A stretch of 21,298 nucleotides of DNA from Candidatus Micrarchaeaceae archaeon (GCA_038873795.1 JAVZDR010000006.1:1-21298); one strand, 5' to 3'. Positions 1,486-18,330 are shown, numbered from the stretch's first letter. Program-made: numbers and translations. The notes: generated by a model not told the origin, from the letters alone.

Positions 1486-2142
1486 ATGGCCAAAACAAAA
1501 AGGGTCAGTGCTTCTCCTTTTTCTAGATACACGCTCAGGTGGGCACCTGGCGGCAAACTCACGACTGCGCAGTATGCGCTCTTCGCAATACAGATGGCTG
1601 TTGTTATACTGCTCTCTTGGCTCGGCACAGTAGCAACGCCGGTGGTTGGTCCTGGTATAGGCTTCCTCTATTGGGCATATCCTTTCTTCGTGGTCTTCAC
1701 TCTATGGTGGGGCATCTGGGGCATAATAGGCGCGTGGCTAGGCTGCGTCGTCGGCTCAGGTCTTCTGACAGGCTTGCCTATAATACCATCGCTCGCCTTC
1801 AGCCTTGGCGACTTCCTACCCGCATTGCTTATCTTCCTTCTCTATAGGGGTTACCTTGCAAAGCATAATGTCGACCCTCTGGGCAGGGACATACTGAGCA
1901 ATAAGGTTGCTGCTGCGTGGTTCATCTTCTGGGTAGTGGGCATAACCAACATAATCGGCGGCATGTGGGGCGTCTGGGTATTGGTCCAGCTCAACTTCGT
2001 TCCAGCAAATGCGTACTGGCTTGGTGCTGGTTTGTGGATACTCGGCGATGCGATAGTACTGATAATAGCGCCGTTCCTTTCAAAATACCTAACGCCAATA
2101 GTTGAAAGGTATGGTCTAGTGAACCAAGGCTGGTTCTCTTGA
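1486..2142 (+). CDS. Integral membrane protein (~6 TM, MASE1-like), putative ECF substrate-binding S-component
   Basis: ORF track gives 1462..2142; ATG 1486 follows GGGGA. Hydrophobic helices with GD motifs (SLGDFLPAL, WILGDAIVLIIAPFL). First gene of the operon, with its stop overlapping the ecfT start (TTGA). Confidence 0.7.
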   Translation: MAKTKRVSASPFSRYTLRWAPGGKLTTAQYALFAIQMAVVILLSWLGTVATPVVGPGIGFLYWAYPFFVVFTLWWGIWGIIGAWLGCVVGSGLLTGLPIIPSLAFSLGDFLPALLIFLLYRGYLAKHNVDPLGRDILSNKVAAAWFIFWVVGITNIIGGMWGVWVLVQLNFVPANAYWLGAGLWILGDAIVLIIAPFLSKYLTPIVERYGLVNQGWFS

Positions 2143-2996
2143 ACAATGCGACTCGCGGTGCTGGCAGAGCTGGTAAGAAGTATGTCAAGACTATAATGTT
2201 CTCTGCTCGCGCCAATTCTTTATTCGTCAAGGTGCATCCATTTGCCAAGATTGCGCTGCTCCTAATAGTCTCTACTGCCGTTGTAATATCAATGACCAAG
2301 GCCAAGCCAGACGTGCTATTCAACATGATTGTCGTTGTGCTTGCGCTCGCCTTCATGGTTGAATCTGGAACAATCAAGTATCTCGTGAAGAGCTACATTG
2401 CTGCCATATTCATAGCACTGTTCATGCTTGGCATATGGTGGCTTGCCTTCAACCAGATTGGTGGCAATGCCATAGCCACATTCAACCTCTTCGGCGCTGT
2501 AATAAAGATAACAACAGAATCTCTCTACATAGCAATTGGCAGGGTGACTGGCTATGCAGCCATGGCCTTCCTCACAATACTTACGGTAATGACGACAAGG
2601 GATGCTGACATAATCTCCGCGCTGCGCAAGCTAAAGATGCCGTTCAAAGCGGTGTTCTTCGCGTCTCTTGTCTCGCGCAACATCAACATAATGGCTGAAG
2701 ACTTGAGCTCCATAAGGCAGGCGCAGTTCGTGAGAGGCTCTTCGATAAACAGCAGGAATCCAATTAAGCGCATAAGGGAATTCATAATGCTTTCCGTGCC
2801 CCTCACAGCCACAATGATAAAGAGGTCGGTAGACGTGGGCAATGCGCTCGAAGCGAGGGGCTTCTCCAAAGCAAGCACTTTCACCGGCTATCTCGACGAG
2901 CGCGGCTTTGGCGCAGTTGATTTTTCCATCATTGCATTCTCCATAGCCATGCTTGCGCTGTCAATCACCACAAACCTAACCATAATTGCTTTCTAG
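2139..2996 (+). CDS. ecfT: Energy-coupling factor transporter transmembrane T component (EcfT/CbiQ family)
   Basis: N-terminal HPFAK motif, several TM helices, and two X-R-G coupling motifs (QAQFVRG, ALEARGF). Start is either TTG 2139 or ATG 2196. Confidence 0.92.
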   Translation: MNNATRGAGRAGKKYVKTIMFSARANSLFVKVHPFAKIALLLIVSTAVVISMTKAKPDVLFNMIVVVLALAFMVESGTIKYLVKSYIAAIFIALFMLGIWWLAFNQIGGNAIATFNLFGAVIKITTESLYIAIGRVTGYAAMAFLTILTVMTTRDADIISALRKLKMPFKAVFFASLVSRNINIMAEDLSSIRQAQFVRGSSINSRNPIKRIREFIMLSVPLTATMIKRSVDVGNALEARGFSKASTFTGYLDERGFGAVDFSIIAFSIAMLALSITTNLTIIAF

Positions 2997-3005
2997 GGTG
3001 TTTAT

Positions 3006-5666
3006 CTGGAAAAGGCAGTCGAAATAAGAAAACTCTATTGGAGATATCCAAACTTTACTGGCATAGTCTCCGATTATGCGCTAAAGGGCATAAACCTCGA
3101 GATATACAAAGGCGAATTCTTCGGCATCACTGGCGCCAGCGGGGCCGGCAAGTCGACACTCTGCTACACTATGCTCGGCCTCATACCGCACCAGATAAAG
3201 CTGCCTTTCAACAGCATCGGCATGCATTTCAGGGGAAGCGTTAAAGTATTTGGAGAAATAGTAAGCGCTTTAGCAAAGGGCAAGGGGAGAGAGGTAATAA
3301 TCGGGAAAGGCGTTATGGTCCCTGATGTTGGACTAGTTATGCAGGATCCTGAGAGCCAGTTCCTGAGCATGAGCGTGCTTCACGAGCTTTCCCTGGGACT
3401 GCAGATGCAGGGCCTTGGAAAGGACGAAATAGAGCGCAGGGTAAGGGAAGCCCTCAGCATAGTCGGTCTTGAAGAGATGGCTGACGCTGCAAGCCTCATA
3501 CATCCCTCAGAGCTCTCTGGCGGCCAGAAGCAGCGCCTCATAATAGCGAGCTTCATAGCGATGCGGCCCCGCCTCCTCATACTTGACGAGCCTACCTCAG
3601 ATTTAGATCCTGCAGGCAAGATTGAAGTCATAGAAGCGATAGAGCGGCTTCGCGCCAAAACAAAGATGACGATAGTGCTTGTGGAGCATAATCCGGAAAT
3701 CATGCTGAAATTCGCGGACAGAATGGCAGTGATGCACAATGGTTCGATAGTCAAGATAGGCAGACCAAAAGAGATTTACAGCGACATAGAATTTGGGAGG
3801 ATGTACAACATATACATGCCTGAGCACGCAGAGCTCTCAAATTATGTAAACGAGGACATGTCACTCAAAAAAGTTCCAGCAAAGGGCTTCAGGATAAAGA
3901 GGGAGGCGGTATCAGGTTCAAAGGAGAGCGTTATAGACATAAAGGGGATGAGCTTCAGGTATGAGGATGGGACACAGGCCCTTAGCGGGATAAACCTCAG
4001 GATAAACAAGGGCGAGTTTGTTGCCATAGTTGGGCAGAACGGCAGCGGGAAGAGTACGCTCTGCAAGGTCATCTCCGGGATAAACAGAAGATTCGAGGGC
4101 AGCGTAAATGTGATGGGCTTCGATGCAAGGGACAAAAGATATTTATCAAAAGTGCCGTTGTATGTCGGCTATGTCTTCCAAAATCCCGATCACCAGATAT
4201 TTGCAAGGAGCGTCATCGACGAGGTCGAATTTGGGCTCAAGAACCTAAAAGTCGAGAAGAGCGAAGCAAGGGAGAGGGCAACAAAAATATTGAAGAGGTT
4301 CAATCTCTACGACAAAATGGATGAGGATCCACTCTTTCTCGGGAGGGGCCAGAAGAGAAGGCTGGCTGTAGCGAGTACACTTGTGATGGACCCGAAGGTT
4401 CTCATTGTTGACGAGCCCACTACGGGCCAAGATTACAGGATGACAAGGGAGATAATGGAGATACTTGCTGAGCAGAATTCCAAGGGCAGGACTATAATCG
4501 TGATAACGCACGACATGCGCATAGTAGCAGAGTACTGCAGGCGCGTGGTAGTGATGAGCGGCGGCACCATAATATTTGATGGAACCCCCGAAAGCCTCTT
4601 CATGAAAGAGGATGTGATGCGGAAGGCCGCCCTGACCGAGCCAGAGTCTGTAAGGCTTTCCAAGAAACTGATGCGCGAGGGCATCATCAAAGATCCCTTG
4701 ATAAGTGCAAGGGAGTGGCTCGAGTTCTTCGAGTTTGAGAAGAGGAAGACAAAATTTGAAATGTTTAGGTATCCAGAGATGCTGGATGCGGCAAAGGCGA
4801 TTGCAAAAATGTTCGCCAGCAGGTATGGCAAGCCCGATGGGGTATTATACATAGAGAGAGGCGGGATGATTCCTGCTGCGCTCGTAGCAAGAGAGCTCGG
4901 CGTAGGCAGACTTCTCCACGTCAGCGCTGGCTATTACACAGATGCGGGCGTGCCTTCAAAAAGCGTCAAGATATGGAGTATAGATGGCAAAATAAGTAGC
5001 ATAAAGAAAGGCCGAATCCTCCTCATAGATGACATAGCCGATACGGGAAAAACGCTCACGGATGTTTATAAATCAATAAAGAAGCTGACAAAAGCCGAGA
5101 TAGTGACGGCAACGTTTCTCTACAAGTCCAAGTCAATAATAAAGCCAGAATTTTACTATGCTGAAAAAGACAATAGCACATGGATAATCTTTGATTATGA
5201 AGAGAATGAAACAATGCAGAGCTTCACCAAAAGCAAAAACAAAGTGGGCCTTGATTTCTTGAATGCAAGCTTCGGTCCAGAAGCAATAGCCGGTTCTAAA
5301 ACAGAGTTTCAGCGAATCAAGGACGGGGTAAAGCTTGCTGCAGAGAGAATAAAGAATGCCGAAGGCGTTCCGGCAGCCATAGCCTACATAAAGCCTTCGG
5401 GAAACATCATGGCTAGGCTTGCGAGCGACTACCTCCAGGTAAAGGCTATGCTCGCAATCGATGCTGATGGAGATTTCAGCACCAAACTGGCAGAGCGCAT
5501 ATATAGAAGCGGCGGATACGTTCTCCTTGTCGATGATAATTCAGATGGCTCAGATGCAAGATTAAGGAAGGCCTTAACTAGGCTAGCGTCTGCAGGGCTT
5601 AAGGTAGTCTCTTGCACAAGTCTCAAAACAGATGACTCTTCTGCGAGGAATTACTTTCTGAGCTGA
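3006..5666 (+). CDS. ECF double ATPase (EcfA-EcfA') fused to a type I phosphoribosyltransferase domain and a second degenerate PRT-like domain
   Basis: The frame is open upstream of the track's ATG 3171 and contains the first Walker A (GASGAGKST), so the start was extended to CTG 3006. NBD1: QDPESQ, LSGGQKQR, ILDEPT, EH. NBD2: GQNGSGKST, QNPDHQ, LGRGQKRR, IVDEPT, TH. PRT: IERGG, ILLIDDIADTGKTL, WIIFDYE. Second copy: VLLVDD. Confidence 0.9.
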   Translation: MEKAVEIRKLYWRYPNFTGIVSDYALKGINLEIYKGEFFGITGASGAGKSTLCYTMLGLIPHQIKLPFNSIGMHFRGSVKVFGEIVSALAKGKGREVIIGKGVMVPDVGLVMQDPESQFLSMSVLHELSLGLQMQGLGKDEIERRVREALSIVGLEEMADAASLIHPSELSGGQKQRLIIASFIAMRPRLLILDEPTSDLDPAGKIEVIEAIERLRAKTKMTIVLVEHNPEIMLKFADRMAVMHNGSIVKIGRPKEIYSDIEFGRMYNIYMPEHAELSNYVNEDMSLKKVPAKGFRIKREAVSGSKESVIDIKGMSFRYEDGTQALSGINLRINKGEFVAIVGQNGSGKSTLCKVISGINRRFEGSVNVMGFDARDKRYLSKVPLYVGYVFQNPDHQIFARSVIDEVEFGLKNLKVEKSEARERATKILKRFNLYDKMDEDPLFLGRGQKRRLAVASTLVMDPKVLIVDEPTTGQDYRMTREIMEILAEQNSKGRTIIVITHDMRIVAEYCRRVVVMSGGTIIFDGTPESLFMKEDVMRKAALTEPESVRLSKKLMREGIIKDPLISAREWLEFFEFEKRKTKFEMFRYPEMLDAAKAIAKMFASRYGKPDGVLYIERGGMIPAALVARELGVGRLLHVSAGYYTDAGVPSKSVKIWSIDGKISSIKKGRILLIDDIADTGKTLTDVYKSIKKLTKAEIVTATFLYKSKSIIKPEFYYAEKDNSTWIIFDYEENETMQSFTKSKNKVGLDFLNASFGPEAIAGSKTEFQRIKDGVKLAAERIKNAEGVPAAIAYIKPSGNIMARLASDYLQVKAMLAIDADGDFSTKLAERIYRSGGYVLLVDDNSDGSDARLRKALTRLASAGLKVVSCTSLKTDDSSARNYFLS

Positions 5667-5745
5667 AATTTACTCCTACGCGAAGGTTGCCTGCACCAAA
5701 ATATAATAATCTATTTGCGATAGAGATATTGTGCTGGGCGTATCC

Positions 5746-6489
5746 ATGGGCATAATAGATGTTGAGAAGATTAAGTTTGAGTTCGGCGCAAACCTGGTCA
5801 TAATAGACGGAATCTCGTTCAGCGTCGAAAAGCAGGAGTTTGTCACATTGGTTGGGCCTTCAGGCTGCGGAAAGAGCACGCTGCTCAGGATAATAGCTGG
5901 CCTAATCAAGCCAAACTCAGGCAGTGTCTATTTCATGGGAAGGAAAATAACAGAGCCAACAACTGGAATTTCATTTGTATTTCAAGACTTTGGGCTTCTG
6001 CCATGGCTCACTGCAATGGAGAACGTGAAGCTTGGGATGTCAATGCTTGGCATAAGCGAGTATGAAAAGGAAAAAAGAGCCGCAGAACTCCTTGAAAAAT
6101 TCGGCCTCTCGAGTTTTGCAAATGCATACATCAATTCGCTGAGCGGCGGCATGAAGCAGCGCGTCGGTATAGCAAGGGCCCTCTCATCCGATCCAAAGGT
6201 GCTGCTCATGGATGAACCATTCAGCTCTATAGACGAACTCACAGCGGAATCTTTGAGGAGCGATGTGCTTAGCACGCTGAAGAACCCGGAGACCCCTGTC
6301 GATTCGGTGATAATGGTCAGCCACAATATAGAAGAAGCTGTGGAGCTTTCAGATAGGATCATCGTACTCTCTGACAAGCCATCTAAGGTAAAGGGCATAA
6401 AGAGCATAAGCCTACCTTACCCGAGGAACAAGCACGACAAGAGGTTCATGCAGAATGTTGACGAAATATATTCGATACTTACCGGCTAG
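5746..6489 (+). CDS. NitT/TauT (SsuB/TauB-like) family ABC transporter ATP-binding protein
   Basis: GPSGCGKST, FVFQDFGLLPWLT, LSGGMKQRVGIARAL, LLMDEPFS and VSH motifs. The track starts at GTG 5731; ATG 5746 is equally plausible. Confidence 0.93.
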   Translation: MGIIDVEKIKFEFGANLVIIDGISFSVEKQEFVTLVGPSGCGKSTLLRIIAGLIKPNSGSVYFMGRKITEPTTGISFVFQDFGLLPWLTAMENVKLGMSMLGISEYEKEKRAAELLEKFGLSSFANAYINSLSGGMKQRVGIARALSSDPKVLLMDEPFSSIDELTAESLRSDVLSTLKNPETPVDSVIMVSHNIEEAVELSDRIIVLSDKPSKVKGIKSISLPYPRNKHDKRFMQNVDEIYSILTG

Positions 6490-6961
6490 GCTGCGCAGTC
6501 CATGTATCCCGCTCGCTGTTGTAGCGGACTATGCCAGCCCTCACGCCCCAGCTGAGCATTAGACTCTTGAATATCTCTTCATTTGTGATCTTATCAGCAT
6601 GGAAGCTTATCCCCTTCTTTCTGATCTTCTCGGTAAGCTCTGGTGTAGCCAGCTCATGCTCGCTCAACGCCGCTATGACGGTCCTGAACGGCTCTATCTC
6701 TCGCAGCCTGCTCCTTGCATTCTCTACGAATCTCTTAGCATCAAACTTGCGGCCCTCCTCCTTTACGCTTATCATGCCCCCCTTAACCTTTATTGTATCA
6801 AGGAGCTCGCATGCGTCGAGGAGAGGGAGAAGATTGTCTATGTTCTCATTTATCTCGTCAGCAAGCTGCGCGATGCTCATTGTGCCTCCATTCTCATTGA
6901 GAACCTTCAGCACGCCCCTGACCTGGCCTATCGAAGGCCCGACAGGAAACCGTTGCACCAT
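6479..6961 (-). CDS. Stand-alone AAA-associated C-terminal domain protein (AAA_assoc_C-like, winged-helix-like) of the NitT/TauT ABC system
   Basis: The pattern P..SIGQVRGVL..L...GG...I..LA.E....ID.LLPL.DA..LL, together with EPF and WG..AG...Y, resembles the domain usually fused C-terminally to these ATPases. Lies next to the ATPase and permease genes. Confidence 0.72.
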   Translation of the reverse strand: MVQRFPVGPSIGQVRGVLKVLNENGGTMSIAQLADEINENIDNLLPLLDACELLDTIKVKGGMISVKEEGRKFDAKRFVENARSRLREIEPFRTVIAALSEHELATPELTEKIRKKGISFHADKITNEEIFKSLMLSWGVRAGIVRYNSERDTWTAQPSR

Positions 6962-7006
6962 CGAATAACCAATTTTATTGCATTATAAAGCTATTAAATT
7001 TTTCTG

Positions 7007-8584
7007 TCAGCCATACACTTTTGCCACATTGTTGTAAAGCCTCCTCCAAATGAACTTGTTCACAAGCAGTATCATAATTGTGAGGTTTGCAAGCGCGATG
7101 AGCATGAGCAACATATTGCCGCTGTCAAGGGAAAGGTCCAAAAGCTTGCCTATGCCCACGCTGACGCTGCTTATCACAGCACCATTGCCTATCGCTGTGC
7201 TTGTGAAATACTCTGCGACTATGCTTGCATTCCATTCTGCAGCTATGCCCGTGACAGCGCCTGTTATCAATCCTGGCATTATGGCCTTGAGGTATATATT
7301 CCTGAATGCATTCTTGCCCTTTACCTGGAATACCTCCTTTACCTCCATTATGCTCTGTGGCATTGTTCTGGTGCTTGCTATTATGCTGAATATCACGTAC
7401 CATATCCCGCTCAGGACAAAGACGAAGAATGCTACAAGCTCTCCATGCAGAGGCTGCCTGCTCAGAAGTATAGCAACTGGCGGCAATAGGACAGTGGCAG
7501 GTATGGAAGCGAGTATCTGCATGCCAAGAAGATAGCTGCCCGGATGTTTTGAGAGGAATGCTATGTATATTGAGAGGGGCACTCCTATGAGCAGTATTAT
7601 TGCAAAAGAGAGCCAAACCCTGGCTATGCTTGCAGCAAGGGCAAGCAGCACCTCCGACTCATACGAAAAGATCTTTGCGCCAAATATGTAGACAAGAAGC
7701 GCTATAATTGTCAAAACCGCAGCAGCCGCCGCTACTACGTATTTTGGCCTGCTTTTTTGCAATGAACTTGCCTCAGCATATTCTCTCGCCTTGGCCATGT
7801 GCGCCCGCCTCCTGAAGAGCCTGATGCGGGAACTAATATGGATTCTTGGCACGTTCATAATGAAGAATCTGCGATGGTGCTCCCTCAATCTATACTGCTC
7901 CTTGGTTTTAGCAAAGCCCCCTTTCACATATACATTAACCTTCCTCTCTAATGGTGCGAAAAAAAGGAATCTTGTAAGGATGACAAACGCAATGAATACG
8001 CCAAGTGCAATAGCATATCCAACGAAGTTTCCGCTAAGCGCGAGGTTGGTTATCGCAACCCCTATGCCATACTTAACAGCGTAAGTGGCTCTACCTGTTG
8101 AAAATATTTCGCTTGTCACGAGGTAGAAGAGGCCTATGGACCATGAGAGTACAGATTGCTCGATAACTCGAGGCATTGCCGCGGGTATGAATATCTTCCT
8201 AAGCTTCTCAATCACACCCATATGATATAGCATTGCAAGCTCCATAAATTCTTTTGGCAAGGTCTTTATCGATTCATAGACGCCGAATGCTATATTCCAT
8301 ACCATGCTTGTTATTATCAGGAAAATCACTGCCACGTTGATTCCTATGAATCCGGGAAGCAATGCAACAAATACATATATGACGAAAGGGAAGAATGCAA
8401 GTATTGGTAGCGTTTGGAATATGTCAAGCACAGGTATTATAACCCGCTCTGCCTTCCTGTTTAGTGCTGCATATATGCCGACGCCAAGGCTTATAAGTAT
8501 TGAAAAGAAGAGGGCTATGAACATCCTCACCCATGAGAAGGTCGTGTCTACAAGCAGATTCGCAAGCAGGCTATAGGCAAGCAT
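7007..8584 (-). CDS. NitT/TauT family ABC permease with two fused transmembrane domains
   Basis: Two repeats (DIFQTLPILAFFP...WNIAFGVYES...EAA-like loop...IPAAMP and QILASIPATVLLP...WYVIFSI...LKAIMP) joined by a basic linker. The track starts at GTG 8596; ATG 8584 after GGTG is likely. Confidence 0.92.
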   Translation of the reverse strand: MLAYSLLANLLVDTTFSWVRMFIALFFSILISLGVGIYAALNRKAERVIIPVLDIFQTLPILAFFPFVIYVFVALLPGFIGINVAVIFLIITSMVWNIAFGVYESIKTLPKEFMELAMLYHMGVIEKLRKIFIPAAMPRVIEQSVLSWSIGLFYLVTSEIFSTGRATYAVKYGIGVAITNLALSGNFVGYAIALGVFIAFVILTRFLFFAPLERKVNVYVKGGFAKTKEQYRLREHHRRFFIMNVPRIHISSRIRLFRRRAHMAKAREYAEASSLQKSRPKYVVAAAAAVLTIIALLVYIFGAKIFSYESEVLLALAASIARVWLSFAIILLIGVPLSIYIAFLSKHPGSYLLGMQILASIPATVLLPPVAILLSRQPLHGELVAFFVFVLSGIWYVIFSIIASTRTMPQSIMEVKEVFQVKGKNAFRNIYLKAIMPGLITGAVTGIAAEWNASIVAEYFTSTAIGNGAVISSVSVGIGKLLDLSLDSGNMLLMLIALANLTIMILLVNKFIWRRLYNNVAKVYG

Positions 8585-8692
8585 GGTCAGCACCACATCT
8601 CAGGATAATTCATAAAACGCTGCCAAATTATAAAAGGTTGTGTGATGGACTTTAGCGGCTATTTTTTTAAGCTTATATGCAAATAGATATCC

Positions 8693-17891: not shown

Positions 17892-18123
17892 GTGGTGCGC
17901 GGGTGGCTTACCGTTTTTTAACGGAGGAAGCTCTCCCCATGCAGAGATTGCGAATGCCTAAGGCATAATTCGATACAGAAACGAACCGCTGCCGCACATT
18001 GCCATGACAATACGAGCGTGCGGGTGCGGATGAAACGCATCGATGCGCAATCGGTGAGCATGCAAGGCATATGCCGCTTAGTCGGATGCCACCTAAAACA
18101 GAAGGGAGGCTACGGCGCACCAC
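17892..18123 (+). ncRNA. rnpB: Archaeal RNase P RNA, compact type-M-like
   Basis: Hand-folded: P1 17892-17900/18115-18123; P2 GGTGGC/GCCACC; P3 hairpin; CR-I GAGGAAG; P4 AGC(T)CTCCC/GGGAGGCT; P5 CATGC/GCATG; P7 GATTGCG/CGCAATC; CR-II ACAGAAA; P12; CR-III TGAAA; P15 GGC-ATAT-GCC; CR-V AACAGAA. Confidence 0.95.
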
Positions 18124-18209: not shown

Positions 18210-18330
18210 TGGCGGGGGCGAGATTTGGACACGCGACCTCTAGATTTCTTAGCAATCATAGCAAAATGCTCATCACTCATAATGCTTGGCATATGAGTCT
18301 AGCGCTCTAACCAGGCTAAGCTACCCCGCC
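18210..18330 (-). tRNA. tRNA with CAT anticodon, most likely elongator tRNA-Met, with a 46-nt intron at 37/38 (intron 18246-18291)
   Basis: GGCGGGG/CCCCGCC-A acceptor; D arm GCTT..GAGC; anticodon stem CTAGA/TCTAG with CT-CAT-A|A; T arm GCGTG-TCCAAAT-CTCGC. Not an initiator (no A1-U72, no GGG/CCC stem). Ile2 identity is not fully excluded. Confidence 0.9.
18254..18283 (-). ncRNA. Putative intron-encoded box C'/D' guide element (antisense ATTATGAGT + D' ATGA + K-turn)
   Basis: 9-nt perfect complement to the spliced anticodon loop, with D+5 falling on C34, followed by AUGA-GCA-UUU-UGC-UAU-GAUU K-turn geometry. Confidence 0.6.

Follow-up and report, generated by a model that had tools for sequence, protein, structure and literature searches.

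Energy-coupling factor (ECF) transporters are known as importers of vitamins and metals, and in some of the dedicated (group I) systems the ATPase is duplicated or fused. The group I transporters, such as BioMNY, CbiMNQO and YkoEDC, are said to have been described by Rodionov and colleagues in 2009. In xpt-pbuX of Bacillus subtilis and upp-uraA of E. coli, a permease is paired in an operon with a phosphoribosyltransferase (PRT), the two being separate proteins and the carriers secondary ones; a purine "group translocation" by membrane-associated PRTs was reportedly proposed by Hochstadt-Ozer and Stadtman in the 1970s and was long disputed. The ATPases of ATP-binding cassette (ABC) importers also carry C-terminal regulatory domains (C2 in MetN, TOBE-type in ModC and MalK). 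Here we describe a three-gene ECF-type operon in a stretch of DNA from a Candidatus Micrarchaeaceae archaeon (GCA_038873795.1 JAVZDR010000006.1:1-21298; "the window" below means this whole stretch of 21,298 nucleotides [nt]), in which the ATPase gene continues in frame into an intact PRT domain, and which may well be a dedicated purine importer with a salvage enzyme tethered to its motor.

The operon (window 1486-5666) consists of three genes lying head to tail on the plus strand, for an S component, EcfT and the ATPase-PRT fusion, with the following features (PPi, pyrophosphate; PRPP, phosphoribosyl pyrophosphate):

1486..2142, plus strand: S component, the substrate-capture membrane subunit (218 amino acids [aa], tryptophan-rich)
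2139..2996, plus strand: EcfT, the transmembrane scaffold (285 aa; begins with a TTG that overlaps the stop of S and ends with TAG; Pfam CbiQ)
3006..5666, plus strand: fused gene EcfA-EcfA'-PRT1-PRT2 (886 aa; apparent CTG start)
3006..3875, plus strand: ATPase domain 1 (Walker A 3132-3158, signature LSGGQKQR 3513-3536, Walker B 3573-3608; Pfam ABC_tran, NCBIfam ECF_ATPase)
3921..4694, plus strand: ATPase domain 2 (Walker A 4032-4058, signature-like LGRGQKRR 4338-4361, Walker B 4398-4433; NCBIfam matches)
4707..4745, plus strand: junction helix AREWLEFFEFEKR, with which the ATPase naturally ends; the first PRT strand comes within ~8 residues
4752..5240, plus strand: PRT1, an intact type I purine PRT domain (PPi loop IERGG, PRPP loop ILLIDDIADTGKTL; Pfam PF00156)
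~5295..5657, plus strand: PRT2, a degenerate PRT-like domain (IKPSGN at the place of the PPi loop, YVLLVDDNSDGSDARL at that of the PRPP loop; matches the PRT1 profile)

The open frame at 2997-5666 spans 889 codons between two stops, and the ATPase runs through it without a stop into the PRT domain (Pribosyltran PF00156 at residues 595-730; E 1.4e-16, 60.7 bits against a Pfam cut-off of 26.3), as the original prediction had claimed; the membrane protein, ecfT and double ATPase that it had named are likewise there. ABC_tran is found twice in the 886-aa fusion protein (Pfam, E 1.2e-51), and the NCBIfam models ECF_ATPase_1 (TIGR04520, 421 bits, cut-off 315) and ECF_ATPase_2 (TIGR04521, 430 bits, cut-off 330) each match over two stretches, both of them covering ATPase domain 2 at residues 310-563. 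Walker A and Walker B are present in both of these EcfA/CbiO-type ATP-binding domains. EcfT matches CbiQ (PF02361, E 7.2e-21, 75 bits against a Pfam cut-off of 25). The S component has no Pfam or NCBIfam match, and it has a feature match of 0.95 to "ECF transporter S component" in the ESM Atlas; its AF2 model (pLDDT 89.7) finds ECF S components in all of its top nine PDB matches, which are weak but consistent (Foldseek TMt 0.48-0.72, E 1.8e-3 to 7e-2) and include BioY 4dve (E 1.8e-3) and 4huq_S (TMt 0.72). With an S fold, an EcfT and two EcfA domains, the operon thus has all three structural parts of an ECF-type ABC importer. The S family comprises 27 clusters (53-79% identity, the window's own at 100%) with no functional name, the names being only two of "hypothetical protein" and one of "MASE1 domain-containing protein".

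PRT1 keeps the motifs that led to its recognition: numbering the tail from residue 566 to residue 886 of the fusion protein, IERGG lies at 51-55, ILLIDDIADTGKTL at 106-119 and WIIFDYEENE within 159-170, so that all of the motifs quoted in the original prediction were located. All 24 fused proteins examined retain both the [EQ]RGG and the PRPP loop, and E52, R53, G54, G55, D110, D114, G116, T118, K142 and W161 are invariant in 20 sequences. Its sequence matches in the PDB are 1vdm (3.8e-14), the HGXPRT of S. solfataricus (4z1o, 5.1e-14), the adenine PRT of the same organism (4trb, 1.6e-10) and the XGPRT of E. coli (6e-6); the best fold match of the modelled tail is S. solfataricus HGXPRT (4zfn, TMt 0.83, E 2.5e-13; 4zfn and 4z1o together TMt 0.82-0.83, Foldseek). 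The predicted typing as a Gpt/Hpt-like (hypo)xanthine-guanine PRT therefore holds insofar as archaeal 6-oxopurine PRTs are its closest relatives of solved structure, an HGXPRT being the nearest characterised enzyme; the adenine PRT 4trb, however, is not much further away and has the aligned lysine as well. Lys142 was accordingly dropped as a marker of 6-oxopurine specificity, the aligned residue being lysine in the S. solfataricus adenine PRT too. From its intact and conserved loops, PRT1 looks catalytic. It shows neither the loss of catalytic loops nor the nucleic-acid-binding, ACT or TOBE module that would mark a regulatory type, and Pfam finds no domain other than Pribosyltran in the tail.

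The degenerate copy behind PRT1 had been overlooked in the predicted domain inventory, which was right about the intact PRT. PRT2 matches the PRT1 profile at E 3.4e-9 and is modelled with an alpha/beta core like that of PRT1, while IKPSGN and DDNSDGSDA stand where the PPi and PRPP loops would be. A second domain without a PRPP loop is present in 11 of the 12 fused proteins whose tail is at least 90 aa long, and one protein (P0024, 975 aa) has two intact PRT domains at the place of PRT1 and PRT2. Type I PRTs are usually dimeric; because of this, and because the model of the tail as a two-domain chain is confident (pTM 0.91, pLDDT 92.2), PRT2 most likely takes the place that a second subunit would have in such a dimer.

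The absence of a canonical start had also been missed. There is no in-frame ATG, GTG or TTG upstream of the first Walker A of the ATPase-PRT gene, and the CTG at 3006 aligns with the initiator methionine of homologues; it lies 9 nt past the TAG of ecfT in the same frame, is preceded by GGGTG, and corresponds to the first residue of the database protein P0003. The region around it (2920-3074, CTG and TAG included) is unchanged in contigs from three runs. Translation through the TAG of ecfT, as a mega-fusion of T, A and PRT or a pyrrolysine-type recoding, was considered and rejected: TAG is the commonest stop in the host genome (166 of 434 frames of at least 200 codons), which makes such read-through unlikely. 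Rfam, at its gathering threshold, finds no riboswitch or other RNA element near the operon, its only matches in the window being the RNase P RNA and two tRNAs elsewhere, and no RNA run among the 12 listed runs contains the stretch.

The fusion would be an artefact if a mis-assembly or sequencing error had merged two separate genes, one for an ATPase and one for a PRT. The window is a contig of metagenome type, no canonical start codon opens the ATPase gene, and the coverage comes from assembled Logan contigs and not from raw reads, all of which would suit such an error. Against it, a contig of run X1 (3783-5079) and one of run X2 (4671-5434), from two studies, both bridge the junction with substitutions only, although the source sample may be that of X1; none of the four public runs compared has an insertion or deletion listed across 2900-5700; three runs have contigs with an identical CTG region; and the same architecture recurs in 14 of 20 homologue clusters and in eight independent loci. 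At the junction (~4740-4770), which the original prediction had wanted confirmed with reads, the contigs thus show no insertion or deletion, and on this contig evidence we rejected an assembly artefact, which is already close to refuted. In the structure model, tail residues 3-15 form a helix and residues 18-22 the first PRT strand. This last helix before PRT1 (AREWLEFF...) resembles the "..KEW.." C-terminal helix of unfused relatives, and stand-alone PRT relatives start at the strand aligned to the first strand of PRT1. The premise that ECF ATPases usually end soon after the second nucleotide-binding domain (NBD) is borne out by the unfused relatives of the same operon, at 585-616 aa.

The combination of two ABC_tran domains with Pribosyltran, for which a domain-architecture search had been suggested, does recur. 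When 5.8 billion proteins were searched with the tail, 20 clusters were obtained. Both PF00005 and PF00156 are present in 14 of them (753-886 aa, the window's own included); these come from Thermoplasmata, Thermoplasmatales and one record named Marsarchaeota, and none of the 14 has a name that refers to a PRT. The other six are PRT proteins of 531-591 aa, with PF14907 in two. An exhaustive profile-free search of 1.84 billion representatives gave 1767 relatives, with four of fusion length among the best 150 and the rest mostly free enzymes of 150-200 aa. Of the 301 genomes from the phylum of the window, 113 have a relative of the tail, and in seven it is part of an open frame of 769-889 aa. A single-protein scan of genome contigs gave 18 loci, four of them relevant (L001-L004) and the other 14 being generic ABC ATPases. 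In all eight fusion loci with flanks the gene order S-T-A(PRT) is kept, and S is the most conserved protein of the operon (71-78% identity to the window; T reaches 48-56%, the ATPase portion 55-61% and PRT1 36-46%); in two genomes (G272 and G140) a single fused PRT has a further, separate PRT gene behind it. Conservation of fusion and operon in relatives, which the original prediction had asked to be checked, thus stands for gene order (8/8 loci) and intact loops (24/24) but not for the fusion as such, which is facultative, the PRT being absent from some close operons. In a tree of the PRT domains the fused forms fall into at least four groups (four changes, of which well-supported branches force two); this is a quick tree with an open backbone, made without P0003, P0023 and P0060 (near-duplicates or fragments) and without any row below 113 bits. 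A single origin of the ECF fusion does not emerge from this tree.

The pair of PRT1 and degenerate PRT2 is also found as a cassette behind an N-terminal domain of ~260 aa (L003, L004, L027, L028, L032 and L034-L039; P0013, P0014, P0017 and P0019-P0021). This partner is labelled PF14907, an uncharacterised nucleotidyltransferase, in two database clusters, and these fusions form one well-supported clade. In P0036 (369 aa), a PRT1 relative is followed by a C-terminal region that resembles, by eye, nucleoside 2-deoxyribosyltransferase, which would make it a further fusion of the salvage type.

Each half of the fusion also occurs apart. In a genome of the same genus (G019, 94% complete) the locus is syntenic on both sides, and window 1499-4724 is replaced by ~300 nt that retain remnants of the S start and of the 3' end of the ATPase: S, T and both NBDs have been deleted, and there is no EcfT anywhere in that genome. 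What it keeps is a 360-codon PRT1-PRT2 frame, 64% identical and with its motifs intact, and between the window and this genome PRT1 has a pN of 0.13, inside the range of neighbouring genes (0.09-0.19). Since the PRT pair was kept after loss of the transporter, it must work without it. The transporter side was followed in a metagenome scan with the S alignment, which gave 52 loci. In 18 of these S is at least 72% identical to that of the window; 13 include the ATPase end and downstream DNA (the other five are cut by contig ends), and nine of the 13 are fused.

Where S homologues lie in other genomes, some of the neighbouring genes suggest a purine or a purine nucleoside as cargo. In two genomes that have no EcfT (G009, L059 6008-6628; G071, L060 3615-4265) a solitary S homologue, 47-48% identical, lies beside a DeoD-like phosphorylase and an amidohydrolase of the TRZ/ATZ-MtaD/guanine-deaminase family (both below NCBIfam cut-offs) and beside RpiB (above its cut-off). 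Solitary BioY acts as a stand-alone carrier, and by analogy these solitary S homologues may do the same. In one metagenomic locus (L072 10382-14615) purB, guaA and guaB lie downstream of, and convergent to, an unfused S-T-A operon that has folE2, a radical SAM gene and ApbE upstream of it, and in another (L108) an adenine deaminase lies upstream of the unfused operon. Neighbours with a role in nucleotide metabolism are found in only some loci (L064, L072, L074, L078, L108 and L111).

The host genome (600,028 bp in 55 contigs, of which the window is one in its full length; 94.3% complete) would have good use for such a system. Genomes of the same phylum in the collection measure 0.5-1.6 Mb, the named relatives of the PRT module include Micrarchaeia, and we treated the host as a DPANN-type, Micrarchaeia-like symbiont. 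PF00156 is found in only three of its genes: Apt (183 aa), the PRPP synthetase Prs (303 aa), both named from their translations, and the fusion gene. We found no AIRS domain (PurM/PurL), inosine monophosphate (IMP) dehydrogenase (IMPDH), adenylosuccinate synthetase (PurA) or NCS2 permease in the genome, each of these families being detected in 12 to 14 of 14 control genomes; there are one PNP-family gene and one EcfT, that of the window. If the lack of IMPDH (GuaB) and PurA is real, IMP could not be converted to guanosine monophosphate (GMP) or adenosine monophosphate. The host's Apt covers adenine only and so, again if the absences are real, the fused PRT would be the sole candidate for making GMP from guanine. 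Judged by its gene content, the host would neither make purines nor interconvert them, and a salvage role of the PRT would then be necessary; guanine is favoured as the substrate because these gaps leave the fused domain as the sole candidate source of GMP.

Taken together, we consider it moderately probable that the operon encodes a dedicated ECF importer of a purine base or nucleoside with a tethered, active salvage PRT that traps the substrate by proximity. It would be a group I-like importer with a family-specific S component, EcfT and a single polypeptide for both ATPase domains, the C-terminus of which would be extended by an active 6-oxopurine-type PRT and its degenerate partner. The S component would capture an external purine (guanine being the one most needed, with hypoxanthine or xanthine possible) or, alternatively, a purine nucleoside that the cell's nucleoside phosphorylase would cleave; ATP hydrolysis would drive its release into the cytoplasm; and the PRT, tethered under the ATPase, would turn base and PRPP into the nucleotide, thereby keeping the free base low and the purine trapped. 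We infer a purine base or nucleoside as the cargo, and the tether would presumably bring a kinetic gain. The coupling would amount to proximity and a fixed one-to-one stoichiometry at the entry site, and not to an obligate mechanism, since either half can be found alone in nature. Of the metabolic trapping or channelling that had been predicted, the data thus favour trapping by proximity and nothing stronger; neither half depends on being fused to the other (the transporter-deleted genome on one side, the unfused operons on the other), and strict channelling or group translocation is therefore not indicated.

Several observations weigh against proximity trapping at a purine importer. Four of the 13 close operons (L070-L073, with the ATPases of 585-616 aa) have no PRT; of the other 34 metagenomic loci, in which S is 41-51% identical, 16 have a complete ATPase and none of these is fused; and the unfused operons have no PRT gene within ~7 kb. 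Since unfused S-T-A operons exist, the transporter must work without a PRT. The PRT pair, for its part, is fused to a PF14907-like N-terminal domain in many Micrarchaeia and is also found as a stand-alone enzyme of ~190 aa, so that the module is not specific to transport. At most loci the neighbours are unrelated housekeeping genes (76 of 127 neighbour frames scanned, 20 loci), and no constant neighbour that would name the substrate was found among them. The lysine aligned with the 6-oxo-binding position is also lysine in the adenine PRT of S. solfataricus, so that base specificity cannot be read from the sequence. The missing purine genes are those of a genome with a completeness of 94%. In the comparison of the window with the transporter-deleted relative, synonymous sites are saturated (pS 0.62-0.76), which leaves the argument from selection coarse and the deletion undatable. 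In solved ECF complexes, moreover, the C-terminus of the ATPase faces away from the membrane, which makes a closed channel from S to the PRT unlikely.

The PRT domains could, on another explanation, bind PRPP or the nucleotide product and gate the ATPase, with catalysis secondary or absent, in the manner of the trans-inhibition domains of MetN, ModC and MalK or of the regulatory PRT folds PurR and PyrR. They do sit at the C-terminus of an ATPase, where ABC importers carry regulatory domains, behind a linker so short (from the helix at tail residues 3-15 to the strand at 18-22) that conformational changes could be passed on; one of the two is non-catalytic by sequence, and the conservation of ligand-binding residues would be expected of a sensor too. 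Yet the pair has outlived the whole transporter in the deleted relative, where nothing is left for it to regulate; no other host gene can supply a 6-oxopurine PRT reaction; and the same module is also a free enzyme and part of fusions unrelated to transport. Because the relative without the transporter keeps the pair, sensing cannot be the sole role of the PRT, and a sensor-only role, less likely than a tethered active enzyme, seems to us improbable. The PyrR/PurR-like sensor of the original prediction is weakened to that extent, although a brake that senses PRPP or product may exist in addition to catalysis.

A different explanation would reduce the fusion to plain co-expression: the transporter would have another or broader cargo (a nucleoside, a 7-deazapurine or some other heterocycle) and the PRT would be a general salvage enzyme that gains nothing kinetically from its tether. 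This would sit well with a fusion that is facultative in both directions, with the lack of a characterised member among the 27 S-family clusters, with fused forms that show no single origin in the PRT tree (four changes, two forced), and with the solitary S genes, whose phosphorylase and deaminase-family neighbours fit a nucleoside as well as a base. The fusion nevertheless persists across Thermoplasmata and Micrarchaeia-like genomes with its frame and both halves intact, S is kept at 71-78% identity alongside it, and fusion to the ATPase of an importer is a classic sign of a shared pathway; even with a nucleoside as cargo, the PRT would be only one or two steps downstream. We therefore hold co-expression alone to be unlikely, if somewhat less so than the sensor. 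At the other extreme lies a vectorial machine, in which the binding of PRPP and base by the PRT would be conformationally linked to the ATPase cycle through the short junction, so that import would be coupled to phosphoribosylation. That seems doubtful; were it true, the operon would be a modern, hard-wired purine "group translocation" and the single gateway for all guanine nucleotides, a central node of dependence on the host.

If proximity trapping by a tethered PRT is correct, an ECF family dedicated to purines would widen the known range of ECF cargo, and a metabolic enzyme on an ECF ATPase would be the first such case found and a natural test of whether tethering speeds or pulls uptake. 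Reduced DPANN archaea would probably use it to draw their guanine nucleotides from the host or the environment. The natural variants (fused operons, unfused operons, a transporter-deleted lineage and proteins with two intact PRT domains) are ready controls. The fusion proteins are already in public databases under generic names. Full-text literature searches outside subscription journals and supplements turned up no account of an ECF ATPase-PRT fusion, nor of an ECF S component specific for purines, in keeping with the statement in the original prediction that no EcfA-PRT fusion was known to have been described. What is new here is the reduced-genome context, the degenerate PRT2 and the intact domain that P0024 has in its place, the relative that has lost the transporter, the close relatives without the fusion, the solitary S genes in nucleoside-salvage neighbourhoods and the CTG start.

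The rest of the window holds an archaeal A-type ATPase operon and an archaeal histone-like frame (both named from translations) as well as the archaeal RNase P RNA, a short one of 232 nt at 17892-18123 on the plus strand (Rfam). On the minus strand, 18210-18330 gives an Rfam tRNA match over 121 nt (50 bits) that ARAGORN did not call and that is possibly an intron-containing tRNA. Directly downstream of the fusion gene lies an unrelated second ABC system (5731-8596), in which no binding-protein gene was seen and of which the ATPase and AAA_assoc_C genes are syntenic in the transporter-deleted relative, as far as about window position 7146:

5731-6489: ABC ATPase, nitrate/taurine/SaoA-like, below cut-offs
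6479-6961, minus strand: small AAA_assoc_C protein
7007-8596, minus strand: double BPD_transp_1 permease, 529 aa

Set beside the described systems, the operon resembles BioMNY, CbiMNQO and YkoEDC in its operon-encoded S component with an S fold, its CbiQ-family EcfT and its two EcfA-type ATPase domains; unlike them, it has an S component from an unannotated family, its cargo would be a purine and not a vitamin or metal, and it carries an enzyme on the C-terminus of its ATPase. PRT1 is nearest, by sequence and by fold (TMt 0.81-0.83), to the HGXPRT of S. solfataricus (GpT-2; 4z1o, 4zfn) and the purine PRT of Pyrococcus horikoshii (1vdm), and has the same PPi and PRPP loops. Those enzymes are free and soluble, whereas PRT1 is fused to an ATPase with a degenerate copy behind it, and at 24-29% identity its specificity may differ from theirs. 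A purine PRT is likewise fused to a nucleotide-handling domain in the bifunctional HGPRT/adenylate kinase of Zobellia galactanivorans, where the partner is reportedly a soluble kinase (PMC7326950) and not the motor of a transporter.

Like MetN, ModC and MalK, the ATPase of the window has an extra C-terminal domain that could bind a cytoplasmic metabolite; in contrast to theirs, the appended fold is a PRT and not ACT or TOBE, keeps its catalytic loops and survives without the transporter in a relative of the same genus. With xpt-pbuX, upp-uraA and the group-translocation proposal, finally, it would share the tying of base uptake to immediate conversion into the nucleotide, but whereas xpt-pbuX and upp-uraA join the two only by operon, the tie in the window is covalent and the carrier is an ATP-driven ECF system.

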